A stretch of 64,000 nucleotides of DNA from Chiloscyllium plagiosum (Eukaryota), in assembly GCF_004010195.1 (NCBI RefSeq), contig NC_057759.1:1805069-1869068 (forward strand). The letters are read 5' to 3'. Positions 2,789-64,000 of the stretch are shown in pieces. Made by a program: the position numbers and the translations under genes. The stretch's first letter is position 1. Each line of letters begins with the position of its first letter. The notes under the pieces were generated by a model that had not been told where the DNA came from, made no database searches, and saw only the letters and a list, made by a program, of their open reading frames with translations.

Positions 2789-4209
2789 GAGCTTTAGAAT
2801 TTCTTCAGTTCAGGGGACTGACTCTGAAAAAGAAAAATATAAATAGGGGATTTGTAATCCCCTCAGATTAGAGGAATGAATCTAAGATGACTAGCCACAG
2901 TGCGTATACTGTGCCCATGTAAATAAAGGATGACTTGGTGATGGGATACCAGTGTCTGTACAAACATTTTACCAAGGAAGTACGAAATTTTAAACCCTTC
3001 TCATTTTATCAATTATGTCATCGAAGTCATTGTGAGCCACATTTCCTTATACTATACACCCAATCTAATAAACACATATTCAATTGTAGGCAACTCTATG
3101 GGCAGCCTTCGGTCCTCCCATAATCTGATGATGTCAACCTGATACCTCCCTCATCTGTTTTTGGATTTTACAATGTTTCTGACAGTTTTGTTCCTTCCCT
3201 GATATTTGCCAGCTGCATCGCATCATTGACCAATAACTTAAATAGTTACTTTTGACTAAGAACTCTTTCGAAATTCTACATTAACTTTCGTTTGGTAGAT
3301 TAGGAAGAATAATAATCTGTACCAATTGTTTTATGTCTTTAAAATCGACTCTAATAGAAAGTTACGGTGATACACCTGAAAAAATTGAGAAAATTCTCTC
3401 ACTCACTTCAGCCTGAGAATTCAAACAACAGTTCCTCTGACTTCCAGCTGCAGTTTACTATCCCTGTTATTTCCATGCTGTAAGTGGATTTTGAACTAAG
3501 GTTGCATTTTTAATTAAATCTTTACTGTTTTCACTCTAAACAATTTCCATTACTAATTATATTTTCTTATTGAAAGACAAATATTTGAATTCCACTGAGG
3601 GCGAAAATTAGTCACTTTATAACTTTATCAAGCCATAACAATGAACTTGTTTGGAATTCACAAACATAACCACATCTTATTCTGTCTCTGCCACTCTTCC
3701 CTTTATCATTAGAATTTGTTCAAATTATCGATATCTGCATTTAAGTTTCAATCGTTTATCTCTCCCCATCGTGACTTCTCTTTTTACAACCTTTTATGTT
3801 GGCAATTGTTTGTTTTTGGATGTCATAGTTACAAAATTTATTACGCCTCTCCCCTCATAATATGTCGGGTCTCTTTACTGCCTATAAGTATTTGCTCAAG
3901 GAATTCAACTAACCCTTTCACACTAACTTGTTGCTTGCCTTTTTAATTCTGCATTTACCTGAGCAGTTCAATACTCAAGGATCAGAATTTTCCTTCTACT
4001 TTTTACTAAATACAAACTTGGGACCGTGGCTAATTTAGGCCTTACAAAAATGTCCCCTAATGAAATGCTTGCGTTTAGAAGTGTCTGTTTAGAGAAATCT
4101 GATTAACTTTCGAAATGTTTCTTCCTGTGGCCAATCTCAGCTTTTAGAGCATGTCTACATGAGGGTTACAATTCTAGTTGTGAGCATCTGCTGCATGTAA
4201 TGTGAGCAA

Positions 4210-5342
4210 AATTAGGGCACATGCAAAATTAGGGCAAAATACTGACATGGATTGAAAATTGGTTGGCTGACAGGAAACCAAGAGCAGTGAGAAACGGCTC
4301 CCTTTCAGAAATGGCAGGCGGTGACCAGTGGTGTGCTGCAGGGATCAGTGCTGGGACCACAGCTTTTTACAATGTACATTAGTGATATAGATGAAGGTAT
4401 GAAAAGTAATATTAGCAAATTTGCTGATGACACAAAGCTGGGTGTCAGGGTGAAATGTGAGGAGGATGTTAGGAGAATACAGGGTGACCTGGCTAGGCTA
4501 TGTGAGTGGGCGGATGCATGGCAGATGCAATTTAATATGGATAAATGTGTGGTTATCCACTTTGGTGGCAAGAACAGGAAGGCAGATTACTATCTAAATG
4601 GAGTCAAGTTAGGTAAAGCGGCAGTGCAACGAGATCTAGGTGTTCTTGTACATCAGTCAATGAAAGCAAGCATGCAGGTACAGCAGGTAGTGAAGAATGC
4701 AAATAGCTGGCCTTCGTAACAAGAGGAATAGAGTACAGGAGCAAAGAGGTCCTTCTGCAGCTGTACAGGGCCCTGGTGAGACCGTACCTGGAATATTGTG
4801 CCCAGTTTTGTTCTCCAAATTTGAGGAAAGACATTCTGGCTATTGAGGGAGTGCAGTGTAGGTTCACGAGGTCAATTCCCGGAATGGCGGGACTATCTTA
4901 CGCTGAAAGATTGGAGTGACTGGGCTTGTAAACATTGAGTTTCAAAGACTGAGGGGATCTGATCAAGACATATAAAATTACTAAAGAATTGGACACTCTG
5001 GAGGCAGGAAGCATGTTTCCACTGATGGGTGAGTCCCGACCGAGAGGACACGGTTTAATAAAAAAGGGTAGGTCACTTAGAACAGAGTTGAGGAGAAACT
5101 TCTTCACCCAGAGAGTGGTGGGTGTGTGGAATGCTCTGCCCCAATAGACTGTGGAGGCCAAGTCTCTGGATACTTTGAAGAAAGAGTTGGGTAGAGCTCC
5201 TAAGGATAGTGGAATTAAGGGTTATGGGGATAAGACAGGAACAGGATACTTATTGAGGATGATCAGCCATGATCATAATGAATGGTGGTGCTGGCTCTAA
5301 GGGCCTACTCCTGCACCTAATGTCTATTGGCTATTGTCTATC
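4210..5342 (+). mobile_element. CR1 LINE, 5'-truncated (RT C-terminal part and 3' tail)
   Basis: SGVLQGSVLGPQLF..KFADDTKLG RT motifs; (TGTCTAT)n-like tail. Confidence 0.9.
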
Positions 5343-6224
5343 TGTTCGTCCATTTTACTTTAGTTAAAAAATAATGCCCAAGGGGCCATTTGTCAACTTA
5401 CTCATGGACGACTACAACACCAGAACTGAACCCAAGGGGATGCGTTTTGAAGTTTAGATAAGAATAGCATAAAGAGTGAAACATTTAAAGTTGAAGAAGT
5501 CAGTAGCAGTTAGTTACTTGCTGGAATTTGGGTAAAGAACCAACAGGAGAAGTTAAAGCTTTTGAGCCAAGATAGATGACTTTGAAAGGAGATAAACAAG
5601 CTTGCCGAAAAAAAAAGATACATTTCACCCACATGAATCAGTCCGAGATACAGTGCAGAAAATTATAGAAAAATGTATGAGGAGGCATCTAAAAAAATGA
5701 GGAGAACGAGATAGTGGAAAAGTAATGCAATGGTTTGAAGATTGCTGTCAATGCAATATGTAAGTCACACTATGAGCAGTGCTACAGAGGATCATAATGT
5801 TTTAGACACAGAGAAAGTAGAGAGTGAGATCTCTGCACAGCAAGACATAATGTTACTTCATACCCCCCTCGATTGAAATAAAATGGGAACTGTTGGTGAT
5901 GTAGGCTTGGGAGGTTTAACAGGCACAGTTCTAAGTACAATGAGGGAGATAATCAGGCATGGGATTCCCGTCTCGAAATAAAAGAGGAGGACCCACCCCC
6001 ATTTGCTCCGCTAGCTCCAGGAGTGACAAGTTGCACTGGAGGATGGGAAACACTGTTGTTATTAATTGTAAAGTAAGAGAACATCAGAAACATCAGCACG
6101 TGGAATGACAGTAAGATAGGTGCAAATTAGGAAAATCAGCAGAGAAAGAGAGGCATAAAGGGAGGGGCTAACTTGAAGACGAGCAGAGAATGTGAGGAAT
6201 CAGTGAATGTTGCAGTGATTAATG

Positions 6225-6330
6225 GGCCGGGTGCTGGTAGATGGGACTAGATTGGGTTGGGATATCTGGTCGGCATTGGTGGGTTGGACCGAAGGGTCTG
6301 TTTCCATGCTGTACATCTCTATGACTCTGA
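6225..6330 (+). mobile_element. CR1 3'-end fragment
   Basis: ggaccgaagggtctgtttccatgctgtacatctctatgactct terminus shared with other CR1 ends in the window. Confidence 0.7.
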
Positions 6331-6620
6331 GTGTTGTTATCAGACTGTACTTGTCAGTTTTTGCTGTGTGAAACTGGGAGTGTAGTTTTCATTCTGTTTT
6401 TATCTTTGTGAGTGAGAGTGTAGTTATTAATCTGTCCCCAACAATTACTGCAATGTGAATGTATGACTTAAGTTAACAGAAATTGACTGATGGAGAATCT
6501 TAGTCACACATTTGCGTCACATTAACTGTCGTCATCATTCGTTTGTCTGTTTCTCTGACATGAATGTGTGTGTAGTTATCAGCATGTATTTGTCAGGTTC
6601 TATTCTTGTGTATCAAAGTG
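6330..6620 (+). repeat. degenerate ~47-bp satellite (gttatcaatctgtacctgtcagtttctgctctgtgaatgtgagtgta-like)
   Basis: same motif as the larger arrays at 50.8-54.1 kb. Confidence 0.6.
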
Positions 6621-8455
6621 GAAACCAGTAATATTCTCTGTCTGTGTGATACATTCTGTGGTGGTTGTTATGAGGGTGTTGAGACTGGATCTTAATCTTT
6701 CCTACATTTTGTAATTTCTAAGTTGACTGTCAGTCTGTGGGGGTGGGTGGGTGAGAGGGGAGAAAGGGTGATGGTGGAAGGGAAACTGTTCTATTCTGAG
6801 AACCATTCTGAATTATGGTCACACATTTCCTGTTTGGGGAGAGAGTCTGGGATCTGTGGTATCACTGAGACATTTAATTTCAATTTGTCTCCAGACATTG
6901 TTGATGTTTTTTATGGGAAGAGCTTTATTCTGCATGTCAGTCCATTTCTGTCTGATATTTTTCATACCAATATGCAACACAACAGCATGTCCTCTCCTTA
7001 CTCATCAAAATCAGAGTCACTGATATGGTACAGCTTAGAAGCAGACCATTCAGCCTATTATGCCTCTACTGGGACATTCTTTTATACATCAGTTCTGCAG
7101 TAATTGTTGGAATGTGAACTTCATCAACTCATTGTCAGCGTCTAAATGGAAAGGACAATTTGACATCAGTTCTGCTGTCATCTTACTTTTAATAACTATA
7201 GTGCTAGTTTTGATATGTTTCCCACAATCTCAATCAAAGATCATTGGTCAGATCATATTTGTGTTCAGTTCTGGGCACTTTTCTTAAGGGAGGATCCTCA
7301 AGCTTGAGAAAGAGTTCATTAGCCATGTACAGGATCTCATTCACTTACATTCAGTTTGGGTTTGTGTCTGAGTGTAGCATAAACTCTGTAAAAAACTCTT
7401 TTCAATAATGCTCATTTGCATTGCATTTCAGTCTCAGATTATTGTTACATTGTGTGTGTATGCCTGTATAGTAGACTTTATCAGGCATTGCTAGGCGCTG
7501 CATATCCTCAGCTGTGATAAGTGATGTTGAGAGTCAATTCATATCTGGAAATAATTGAGGCCAAATTTTAATCTTCTCCTTTCAGCATCCAGTGGCTGAG
7601 AGCAAGTGAGTTTACTGTTGTGCTGCCAGTCTATATATCAGTTCATTTCTCCTGTAGTGAATGGGAAACAGCCAAAGTTCTTTAATTGTTAGTGCTTGTA
7701 GGAATTACGTGCAAGTGAAAATGTAACATACTGCAACAGAGAGGATTCTGTGCTGTTCTTCAGAGTCAAGGGAGGAATCTTGTATCGTGCAGAATCTAAC
7801 AAGCAGTAATGATATAAAATGTTCATCTTCAGAACGTCATTAGTTTTTGTTTCAGTGCATAGTGATGTACTTTTCTGAACACTGCTGAACTAACAATCAA
7901 TGTAAACTGAATCCACTTGCAACTAAGTGACAAACCATTCAACTGCATTGGAGCTGACTGTCCATAATGTTCCTTGTACGGAAAAGACAATTGGCAAATT
8001 CACTTCTATTTTCTGATGTAGACAGAACATTACCCTGCCCCGTAGTGTGATGATGCACCATTAACAGTACTCTTGTGTTACGCTAGTAGGGAGGAGGAGG
8101 AAAGGAAAAGAACTTTCATTTTTTGTCATGCATTGCAGAATACGTAAACTGCCAAATTCAATTTATGGAATAACCAACACTGTTCAACGCTGCTTGAAAA
8201 TAAAATGAGCAGTTCCTCAAACCCACCAATTTTGGCTTTTTTTTCTCCACTGCTTTGAAGGGTGGTTATTAGATTCCTTTGATGCATTGTGAAAATTGCA
8301 GCAAGATTTCACGCTTTTTTGCGATACATCCTCAGGAGGGGGAGGAGGAATGCAGAGCTCTTTGTAGATAATTGAAACGAGTTTCTGGTTGGACTGAAAC
8401 AGACAAAACAAAGTCATCTACTGCAGTATGAAGAAATGGAGAATGATGTTGTGAT

Positions 8456-8748
8456 AAAGATTAGATTACTTAGTAAGGAAACAGGCCCTTCGGCCCAACA
8501 AGTCCACACCGACCCTCTGAAGAGCAACTGACCCAGACCCATTCCCCTACATTTACCCGTTCACCTAACACTATAGGCAATTTAACCTGGCCAATTCACC
8601 TATCCTGCACATTTTTGGACTGTGGGAGGAAACTGGAGCACCTGGAGGAAACCCATGCAGACATGGGGAGAATGTGCAAACTCCACACAGACAGTTGCCT
8701 GAGGCGGGAATTGAACCCAGGTCTAACCACTGTACCACCGTGCCACCC
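8456..8748 (-). mobile_element. HE1-type tRNA-derived V-SINE
   Basis: A-box ggtggcacggtggtacagtgg, B-box ggttcaattcc, V-domain, (TAATC)n tail on the minus strand. Confidence 0.85.
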
Positions 8749-9369
8749 ACTAGATGGGGATGACAGCTCCGCTGATACCATGACACATTCATGCAAATGA
8801 ATGTTAGCTGATCAGGATGAAAATTGTTAGCTGGTTGTTTCTGGTCAGTGAATACTCATGTTTTGAGGGGTCTGATTCTGTGCTGTCGGACTCCCCCTCT
8901 CTGACAAAGGATGTGTGGGTGGAAATCATTTTGAATGTAACATTTTCTGTCACTTGCAATGTCAATGAAACTGCAAGGCGGTTAGACATTGTAACAGGCG
9001 TCAAGATGATGTATGTTTTGAAACTCATTGTAAGTCAGAGAGAGAGATAGAGACAGAGACAGTGTGTGTGTTTGTGTTTGGGGGGGGGGTGGGAGGTGGG
9101 GGGGTGGGGGGGTGGGAGGGGTAACATTTGGTTACGTACCTACACACTAATCATTCTGTGTCAGGCTTTGATAGGGAATGTGCATATGGAATTCATATTA
9201 TTTGATTGCTGTCTCTATATACATGACAAAAGATTAATTCTGTTGCTCTGAATTTCTGAGAGCTGTAAAGTTTCCTTCAATATAAATTTGTACTCTATTT
9301 TACATATGGTTGCCCAAAGTAATCATATCAGCTATTCGTCACCTTGATTGTAACATTAAAATTATTGTT

Positions 9370-17940: not shown

Positions 17941-18068
17941 TCTCCACATTAAAAAGAAAATAAGCAATCTGACAGAGCTCAGCTCTTCTCTCAGACTCTG
18001 TGAGTGGCTCTTAAAAGAGCCTTTGGGTTGTCAGATTCAAGAACATTCTTCACTTTTTAACAGCTCTA
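17941..18068 (-). pseudogene. orphan histone H2A 3' end (last codons, 3' UTR, stem-loop 18006-18021, downstream element)
   Basis: Aligns to the H2A 3' region at 32359-32485; perfect GGCTCTTTTAAGAGCC hairpin; coding body replaced by CR1. Confidence 0.85.
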
Positions 18069-34068: not shown

Positions 34069-34455
34069 TCACTTGGAGCTGGTGTACTTGGTCACCGCCT
34101 TTGTGCCCTCCGACACGGCGTGCTTGGCCAGCTCCCCGGGCAGCAGCAGCCGCACGGCGGTCTGGATCTCCCGGGAGCTGATGGTGCTGCGCTTGTTGTA
34201 ATGGGCCAGGCGGGAAGCCTCCCCCGCGATGCGCTCAAAAATATCGCCGACGAACGAGTTCATGATGCTCATGGCCTTGGAGGAGATGCCGGTGTCGGGG
34301 TGAACCTGCTTTATCACTTTGTAGATGTAAATGGCATAACTTTCTTTCCTGCACCGCCTCCTCTTCTTGCCAGCCTTCGTTGGCGACTTCTTCATGATTT
34401 TCTTCGCGCCCTTCTTGGAGGCTTGCTGCGCTTTCGGTTTGTGTGGGACCCAATG
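34069..34455 (-). pseudogene. H2B: histone H2B, probable pseudogene (native start lost, stem-loop broken); residual ORF 34069-34395
   Basis: Histone fold intact. In-frame [15 protein letters not shown] lies upstream of the first ATG with no Met. Hairpin reads GGCTCTTATAAAAAAAAACACCCAC. Confidence 0.8.
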
Positions 34456-38689: not shown

Positions 38690-38884
38690 GAGAAAGTGAG
38701 GACTGCAGATGCTGGCGATCAGAACTGAAAATGTGTTGCTGGAAAAGCGCAGCAGGTCAGGCAGCATCCAGGGAACAGGAGAATCGACGTTTCCTGAAGA
38801 AGGGCTTATGCCCGAAACGTCGATTCTCCTGTTCCCTGGATGCTGCCTGACCTGCTGCGCTTTTCCAGCAACACATTTTCAGTT
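38690..38884. mobile_element. family-A fold-back element; hammerhead core in the loop; 16-bp TSD
   Basis: perfect 75-bp arms 38719-38793 and 38814-38888; TSD ctgagcagtttaaatg at 38674-38689 and 38885-38900. Confidence 0.92.
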
Positions 38885-52282: not shown

Positions 52283-52488
52283 CAGATTAGAGTGGTGTTG
52301 GAAAAGAACAGCAGGTCAGGCAGCATCTGAGGAGCAGGAAAATCTACATTTCGGCCAAAAGCCATTCATCAGGAATGTCCAAAAAGTCAATTTTCCTGCT
52401 CCTCGGATGCTGCCTGACCTGCTGTGCTTTTCCAGCACCACTGTAATCTGGATACTAATCTCCAGCATCTACAGTACCCACTTTCACC
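52283..52488. mobile_element. family-A-related fold-back element with 13-bp imperfect TSD
   Basis: inverted arms around a minus-strand ctgatgaatggcttttggccgaaatgta; TSD ttaaaacttgagc/ttaaaattcgagc. Confidence 0.85.
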
Positions 52489-62150: not shown

Positions 62151-62834
62151 GTAACAGCTACTGAGGAGAAAAACTACAACTAACTCCCTGGACACCGCAG
62201 CAAAGGCAAAAAGGAGGAGACATTCTATCCTTCCACACTTACATTTGATGATATTTCTGGCGTGTGACTGTGTGAATGTGAATACTGTGTCAGAGAGGCT
62301 GTTCGAAAAGGGCGGACGGTTAGTCGAACGTAATTGTGCTTGTGTGACCGCGAATATTATATTTCTGGGTCTCTCTTCTGAAAATCAAAAACATTTTCAA
62401 TTCAACTTATTCCCCGGCTCCCCCATTAGACCACAAAGATAGAATTTAAGACAAATGTATTTCAAGATTTCAGTCTAAAAGTACCGACAATGTCAGCGCT
62501 CAGTTCAAAAAGCTCGATCTGTGCGGCAGCAAAATGAGTTTAACTCGACAGCGGAGCCCTCTATTCGAGTGAAAACTTTTCAGTCGCAAACTTTACCGTG
62601 TCAGGGTCAGGAGGGATCGAGCCTGGCTCTCTGGAGATGCGGAATTTCAGAGGAATCGGAGAGTTTAGGCCGTTAGAGAAACACAGAGAGGTAGCAGGAA
62701 CAGGGGAGCTGACGGCAGGTTGTTCCTGCACCGTCTGGTCGCTGCGTTGAAGTTGCTCAGTGCCGTCCCCAGCAGCTTCATTGCTGACCCAGTTTAGACT
62801 GTCCCAGAGAGAGATTCAGCGCAGAGTCCTCGAT

Positions 62835-63619
62835 ATGAGCAACAGTGCAGCCACCGAAACGGCTCCTCCAGCCGCCGCTCCCACCAAAGTCAAAGCTCCC
62901 AAGAAAAAGGCGACGGCTCCCAGGAAAACAGCAGTCGATCACCAGTTGGGCGAGCTGATTCTGAAGGTTGTCGGGGATAGCAAGGATCGCAAAGGGACGT
63001 CACTGTCCGCTGTAAAGAAGGCGCTGGAGAGAAGCGGGATCGATGTGGGAAAGCGAAAGGCACAGATCAAGATGAGTATCAGGAGGTGCCTGGCGAACGG
63101 CTCCCTTGTTCTGGTCAAAGGCCAAGGCGTCTCCGGCTCCTTCAAACTCCCTAAGAATCCTTCCTGAAGAAGGGCTTATGCCCGAAACGTCGATTCTCCT
63201 GTTCCTTGGATGCTGCCTGACCTGCTGCGCTTTTCCAGCAACACATTTTCACCCCTAAGAATCCAGTCAAGGCAAAAGCGGGAAAGAAGGCGGGAACATC
63301 AGCGGCTGCCAAGAAACCGGCCATGAAGATATCACCGGCCAAGAAGGCGACAGCGAAGAAGTCTCAGGCCAAGAAAGCGACAGTCAAGAAATCCCCAGCC
63401 AAGAAAGCGACAACCAAGAAGTCCCCAGCCAAGAAAGCGAGAGGCAAGAAGACGGCACCGCCAAAGAAAGCGGTGAGCAAAGCAGCGCCAAAGAAACGGA
63501 CTCCCATGAAGAAGGTGAAAAAGACCAAGGGCCCTAAAGCCCCCAAACCCCTCAGCAAACCGGCTAAAAGCAAGGCCAAGCCCAAAGCAAAAGTGACCAA
63601 GACAGCAGCAAAGAAATGA
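62835..63619 (+). pseudogene. H1: histone H1 interrupted by a 104-bp insertion (226 aa if removed)
   Basis: Globular domain (LILKVVGDSKDRKGTSLSAVKKAL..GSLVLVKGQGVSGSFKL) and Lys/Ala/Pro tail are in different frames, with a stop at 63165-63167. H1-box AAACACA at 62679-62685. Confidence 0.92.
63161..63252 (+). mobile_element. family-A hammerhead mini-element inside H1; 12-bp TSD
   Basis: TSD ccctaagaatcc at 63149-63160 and 63253-63264; core at 63164-63191. Confidence 0.93.
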
Positions 63620-63655
63620 ACCCGTCAGTGTAATATGTAACCGTCTGAACCCAAA

Positions 63656-63671
63656 GGCTCTTATCAGAGCC
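63656..63671 (+). terminator. histone 3' stem-loop of H1
   Basis: GGCTCTTATCAGAGCC, ACCCA, then AGGAAAGAGCTG downstream element. Confidence 0.93.
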
Positions 63672-64000
63672 ACCCACATCTCTCAGGAAAGAGCTGAGCC
63701 CGGATCCAATGTTCCCCGTCCCGGTACCGAGCGCAAACCTACCTTAGGTATTATTTGATCTGAATAACTCAAATACACACTCGTGCCATGGTTTACGAGA
63801 GCGGAGACCGGTGAATGGCAAATGTATCACAAAGGGAAGGTTTATTGATCTCCATCTGGTTATTTCGCTTCGCGACTTTTAACTCCACCGAGTCACGAAT
63901 GTGACACATTGTGGTATTTTTATTTCATTGACCCGTTCAGGAATGTTACTTTGTTCAGTTTTGATTCTGAGACCCTGCGGATGTTTTCATGGTGTGTTCC

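Follow-up and report, generated by a model that had tools for sequence, protein, structure and literature searches.

Replication-dependent histone clusters evolve by birth and death, and how far the stop codon of a histone message lies from the 3' stem-loop is tied to its escape from S-phase decay. Within the linker histones, it is the loss of the C-terminal domain that has the strongest effect on chromatin binding, as stated in the available text of a review (PMC8331230). Penelope-like elements (PLEs) can be recognized by two CCHH-motif cysteines that stand between GIY and YIG, a criterion given in the accessible part of PMC8557442. According to the excerpted text of a study of a PLE of Anolis (PMC11167929), the tail of the element marks two internal reverse-transcription start points, and the activity of its hammerhead ribozyme requires the protein of the element. 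The minimal hammerheads of metazoan PLEs were described by Cervera and de la Pena (2014, PMC4209133), in whose available text single motifs give no detectable cleavage in vitro while dimers are weakly active, and most of the motifs in genomes occur singly and stem from truncated PLEs.

The locus described here lies in a 64,000-nucleotide stretch of the Chiloscyllium plagiosum genome, which as a whole is referred to as the window. A 92-base end piece of a Penelope-like element sits in a histone H1 gene; with a probability of about 0.85, it arrived recently via target-primed reverse transcription and left a dead gene copy in which the lone hammerhead is an inactive passenger. The features of the locus are the following.

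62679..62685, + strand: H1-box-like promoter motif
62835..63167, + strand: 5' part of the H1 frame, 110 aa long up to the premature TGA, with the N-terminal tail and globular domain
62929..62944, + strand: patch of 8 amino-acid-changing substitutions relative to the paralog majority
63149..63160, + strand: left copy of the 12-bp target-site duplication
63161..63252, + strand: insert of 92 bp, made up of 91 nt of Penelope-like pLTR and one extra C
63162..63193, + strand: minimal type I hammerhead motif
63165..63167, + strand: premature TGA, within the hammerhead core
63253..63264, + strand: right copy of the 12-bp target-site duplication
63265..63619, + strand: remaining C-terminal tail frame of H1, uninterrupted up to the normal stop and now untranslated
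63651..63696, + strand: histone 3' stem-loop with the downstream element (RF00032; score 33.7 bits)

The globular domain, the lysine-rich tail, the 3' stem-loop and the lack of an intron identify a replication-dependent H1 gene whose frame is broken by the insert only. Read from the ATG at 62835, the frame runs into the TGA at 63165-63167, the stop named by the initial annotation, and gives a product of 110 aa. When the two halves are translated apart both are open, 62835-63149 encoding 105 aa that end in SFKL and 63254-63619 encoding 121 aa plus the stop, starting with PKNPVKAKAGKK; their sum is the 226-aa H1 that had been predicted upon removal of the insert, and a second frame lesion is absent. 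The Pfam domain Linker_histone (PF00538) spans residues 40-105 of the frame, thus placing the insert directly behind the globular domain, where a 92-bp insert with a perfect 12-bp duplication had been proposed and is indeed found. The stem-loop and the promoter motif, which had been called intact, are both present. The latter, at 62679..62685, is what we take to be an H1 box; the former scores slightly below Rfam's 34 bits, and its loop variant is common to most paralogs and is thus no private lesion of the window copy. The distance from stop to stem-loop is 489 nt in the window H1 versus 37. The gene is broken by the stop codon and not by the ribozyme, and the weight that had been given to a sense-oriented hammerhead is not supported. 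Sense orientation is one of two equally likely outcomes. Any transcript would yield a 110-aa tailless H1 which, if made, would bind chromatin weakly, since loss of the C-terminal domain weakens binding most; at least seven intact paralogs would cover the loss.

The 12-mer at 63149-63160 is identical to that at 63253-63264, can be extended on neither side and has no further occurrence in the window; paralogs with an empty site carry it once. The H1 insert runs from the usual 5' end of its family to the short (tail-less) 3' end, that is, positions 0-91. Copies were counted across the 3.56-Gb genome by exact patterns, which gave 2,033 matches to the first 91 nt, 4,337 to the first 52 nt and 40,922 to a 44-nt part, while reversed controls for the 91-, 52- and 44-mers gave 0; within the 64-kb window itself, 5 further copies have at least 90% identity. 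The event had been judged recent, and this holds in view of the 2,033 copies identical over 91 nt, the perfect duplication and the absence of a second frame lesion. In particular, the insert carries the commonest family letter at 46 of 47 tallied positions, the remaining one being an even dimorphism, and zero changes in 115 sites would have a probability of 0.0004-0.03 at the paralog's own divergence (3-7%). As insert and duplication are free of private change, they should postdate most of the divergence of the window paralog, and on these counts the insertion is young relative to the paralog. With its empty site known, such a stub insertion makes a clean marker, and it shows the exact duplication and the ends of a young Penelope stub.

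The identity of the insert as a Penelope-like stub with more than 40,000 close copies had been overlooked in the initial annotation. In gap-free sister copies (L099, L131, L087 and L069), a GIY-YIG frame ends 204-219 bp before the same hammerhead. This frame, in the L030 fragment, passes Pfam PF01541 with 23.2 bits against a cut-off of 22.6, and two CCHH-motif cysteines can be seen by eye between GIY and YIG in the translations of L030 and L099. By these sequence characters, the insert corresponds to the pLTR, the end with the hammerhead, of a Penelope-like element.

The sample in which the ends of the family were read consists of 70 copies, all within the first 6 Mb of contig C1; to the first 30 matches were added 40 hand-picked from the 70 that come next, without close pairs and copies already taken. 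The 3' ends fall into two classes of equal size, 35/70 at positions 91-100 and 35/70 at 123-128, a pattern that matches the optional 30-40-bp PLE tail, while 5' ends lie at -3 to +4 in 27/70. An inverted partner accompanies 32/70 copies; among the 38 non-inverted ones, duplications measure 11-18 bp in 11 and 6-7 bp in 4, and 23 have none. Both ends of the H1 insert are modal, and the same simple shape is found in 5/70 copies. Only three of the 70 start at the ribozyme cut site, which fits the copying of uncut RNA. The probable sequence of steps at the H1 site is that the GIY-YIG nuclease of the element would nick the two strands 12 bp apart, after which the reverse transcriptase would start at the inner of the two family start points and stop at the common 5' end. 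As further observations on the family, in seven copies (L065, L077, L082, L092, L101, L103 and L112) the start of the duplication matches the element's 3' end over 1-3 bases, as read by eye and with no control, which looks as if short pairing had primed insertion. Palindromic Penelope stubs, each a copy with an inverted, 5'-truncated partner, lie in the window at 38726-38881 and at about 52290-52440.

That the insertion could be an artefact of the assembly is barely credible, even though the assembly is gap-rich in the H1 cluster and, among the 24 pieces listed (of about 170,000 mapped, with repeat contigs dominating), none bridges either insert junction. Indeed, a perfect 12-bp duplication with modal family ends is unlike a mis-join, and the 3' junction recurs on a second contig. 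In parallel, a 143-nt contig of run X4 equals 62872-63014 with 0 differences, from which it follows that the divergent window paralog exists in reads, X4 being perhaps not independent of the assembly. Four of the 24 listed runs were mapped to 62400-63600, namely X1, X4, X8 and the RNA run X21. At the listed sites X1 and X8 carry none of the window copy's letters, and their contigs drop rare variants; among the indexed sequencing runs, none contains even half of the stretch's words.

The RNA run X21 is poly(A)-primed single-cell RNA from another sample, of which 2% was read and which may lack the window allele. Thirty-five of its reads (28 starts) skip exactly the 104 bases of insert and one duplication copy. 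At the sites private to the window copy, however, the run carries the paralog letter in 68/68 reads at 63119, 134/134 at 63323, 147/147 at 63330, 199/199 at 63506 and 254/255 at 63442, so that the skipping reads stem from paralogs. The paralogs are transcribed, and the window copy's letters are essentially absent from this one run of another sample. Precise splicing of the 104 bases was rejected, as none of the 13 possible registers has GT..AG ends. A crude filter lets through 8 of the 131 GT..AG pairs that would keep the frame, but each of them would cut the globular domain, and the observed joints include none of them.

The hammerhead motif consists of a 2-bp stem I, an extra A, a 4-bp helix II and GAAAC-GUC, with helix III absent. 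Its core begins at 63164, the GAAAC box lies at 63184 and the predicted cut falls after 63191; the conserved core, the extra base after A9, the G10.1-C11.1 pair and the palindromic helix III stub are all found within 63164-63191. Helix I has 2 bp in register instead of 4-5 bp. The poor stem I had been described as a trait of this copy, but it is family-wide, identical ATTC/GATT strands being present in 27 of the 37 sister copies that reach position 0, and the two pairs next to the core have a predicted probability of about 0.002 in the H1 and native contexts alike. A search of Rfam returned no hammerhead match at the gathering score or at E<=5, and folding of the whole region was no better than that of shuffles (z 0.57).

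These features bear on the proposal that the hammerhead, in its sense orientation, is functional within the H1 message and cuts it, thus making a self-silencing allele, either with the target duplication as an outer stem I or by pairing with another hammerhead RNA. The core nucleotides are intact and helix II is predicted to form (p>0.9). Bases after the cut would pair with four bases in the left copy of the duplication (p 0.86-0.93), giving a possible stem I of 2 bp, a 4-nt bulge and 4 bp whose outer part is absent from the native element, and hammerhead-family RNA is abundant in X21. Against this, the favoured fold is out of register, the core-adjacent pairs have a low probability, the H1 message has neither a helix III nor a second hammerhead copy, and single minimal hammerheads are inactive and dimers weak in the text available to us of PMC4209133. 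The scarcity of copies starting at the cut site points the same way, and the stop already removes the H1 tail. A pile-up of read ends is absent in X21, a library that shows such ends unreliably. A self-cutting H1 message is thus highly unlikely, and the lone ribozyme is likely inactive.

The window H1 is one of many, a redundancy that had been missed. A search with the H1 5' half finds at least 25 loci, 22 of them on the window's contig. Of these 25, seven have an intact frame and stem-loop, two are open in frame but damaged at the 3' end, 11 are broken and five are gapped; besides the window copy and a second paralog with the insert (L002, below), the lesions of the broken ones include lost start, nonsense, frameshifts and deletions. 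One of the intact paralogs lies about 22 kb downstream. At a density of 11.5-78 element copies per Mb, 0.18-1.2 chance hits are expected in the approximately 15.6 kb of H1 coding DNA. Since chance hits are to be expected and at least seven paralogs are intact, the knockout matters little. Site-specific targeting of H1 was discarded, because there are only two junction matches genome-wide, of a single origin, and chance suffices. This is ordinary gene death in a redundant family, of which the window copy is now likely a dead member.

Other lesions and stubs are found around the histone genes. The promoter of another broken H1 paralog, L021 (G000:C50 near 261,700), carries a stub from a related hammerhead subfamily; it measures 88 bp, has a short duplication and lies roughly 220-310 bp upstream of the ATG. 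An older Penelope stub occupies one common site in four loci (L012, L016, L023 and L024), roughly 1,130 bp ahead of the H1 ATG; it is absent from the window's unit and marks a sub-lineage of the duplications. The ATG is changed in L004, whose frame is otherwise open, and about 270 bp between short repeats are deleted in L025. On the minus strand of the window, an H2B copy at 34070-34430, without a normal start and with a damaged stem-loop, is likely a pseudogene, and an orphan histone stem-loop at 17981-18026 has retroelement remains directly upstream and no histone frame.

The description of the window H1 as otherwise intact stands as far as a second frame lesion is concerned, but the copy is the most divergent of the 13 full-length ones compared, with 22 differences in 324 nt versus 3-15. 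The 16-bp patch at 62929..62944 is private to the window paralog, lies just before the globular domain and is seen in the X4 contig too; it is possibly the result of one complex event or of conversion from another H1 type. This divergence raises the alternative that the gene was already decaying and that the insert was a secondary hit on a dead copy. The end branch of the window copy is the longest of its clade (0.048 versus 0.012 and 0.016), private changes make up 5.7% of its 5' coding part and 3.3% of the upstream sequence versus 0.3-1.3% in its two sisters, and a crude dN/dS against the paralog majority is 0.9; that the insertion postdates most of the divergence (p 0.0004-0.03) fits as well. 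Codons 1-104 hold 6 silent and 11 replacement changes that are private, with a further 1 silent and 4 replacement in the tail; the seven intact paralogs, pooled, have 9 silent and 10 replacement. However, once the patch is set aside, 6 silent and 3 replacement changes are left in codons 1-104, which looks like purifying selection, and the gene retains its promoter box and stem-loop and has no other stop or frameshift. The case for prior decay appears weakened when counted in this way, and we regard it as possible but doubtful.

The insert is also present, in part, in the second paralog L002, on the minus strand of a separate 78-kb scaffold (G000:C101856, approximately 74,445-74,990). L002 shares with the window H1 the 3' junction, the extra C and 79 identical nt of insert, and this junction between insert and H1 occurs only twice in the assembly, in the two copies. 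In place of the first 13 nt of the insert, L002 has the 13 nt that come after the empty site in H1, kept exactly in register and running to a common GC. The run common to both loci is at most 130 bp. The flanks of L002 are 91% identical to those of the window locus and fall in another starred clade of the H1 tree, a tree of 19 of the 25 loci from which those with short or gapped flanks were left out. The right repeat of L002 carries the window copy's letter and the left repeat that of its own clade. Of the two, the window copy is taken as the original in view of its modal 5' end and perfect duplication.

That L002 is an allele of the window locus was rejected on its flanks and its clade, and an independent insertion is hardly credible in view of the same 3' end, extra C and variant letters and of the donor-type letter in the right repeat. 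The most fitting account of L002 is a switch of template, from an empty paralog to the filled one. The insert would then have been copied into the second paralog, after its original insertion, by a tract of at most 130 bp. We lean slightly towards germ-line synthesis-dependent conversion as the setting of this switch. At somewhat less than even odds, L002 could be a chimera from library preparation or gap filling. The common stretch is about as long as one short read and ends 114 bp from an N gap on the 78-kb scaffold, and a 13-for-13 swap in register is the outcome of a template jump between paralogs; yet only 2 bases are shared at the left junction, which is not enough for a graph mis-join, and the flanks are those of a distinct paralog, at most 95% identical to any other upstream. 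Moreover, were the locus empty, empty reads should presumably outvote one chimeric read.

Under germ-line conversion, L002 may be a caught intermediate, in which a broken empty paralog would have invaded the filled copy via upstream H1 homology, the 13 unmatched bases would have been kept as a bubble with their terminal GC priming in register, and 79 nt of insert together with the donor's duplication would then have been copied. More generally, a disabling Penelope stub may spread sideways through the H1 family by short gene-conversion tracts, a tentative view to which we give just short of an even chance. If conversion spreads the stub, histone homogenisation would also transmit a null lesion without transposition. 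If L002 is real, it represents a dated instance of an insertion that moved between 9%-divergent histone paralogs by conversion, in which tract length and flap handling would be directly readable. In the literature covered, with subscription journals mostly outside that coverage, there is no report of a Penelope stub in a shark H1 or of a conversion-spread histone insertion.

Compared with histone clusters that evolve by birth and death, the H1 family of the shark is alike in its many paralogs, with dead beside live members and 11 of 25 H1 loci broken, and differs in that the window lesion is a PLE stub, partly present in a second paralog. The predicted 110-aa product of the window lacks the C-terminal domain, as do the tail-less linker histones treated in the available part of PMC8331230. 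The Poseidon PLE of Anolis, as presented in the excerpts of PMC11167929, has in common with the shark family the hammerhead at the junction of pLTR and ORF, the two start points and the insertion of uncleaved RNA. In contrast to that element, the H1 insert is a 91-nt non-coding stub only, and matches of 1-3 nt between element end and target, found by eye, are seen in several shark copies. As to the minimal type I hammerheads of metazoan PLEs, in the accessible text of Cervera and de la Pena (2014, PMC4209133) they have the same core boxes, and the extra base between 9 and 10.1, the G10.1-C11.1 pair, the palindromic 15.2-16.2 and the lack of helix III are likewise common to both. The helices differ: helix I has 2 bp in the H1 insert (natively 2 bp, a U-U and 1 bp) versus 4-5 bp in the families of S. 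mansoni described there, from which the 4-bp helix II differs as well. Finally, the shark family has more than 40,000 close copies, versus the 4,000-9,000 given in that text for coelacanth and Xenopus.
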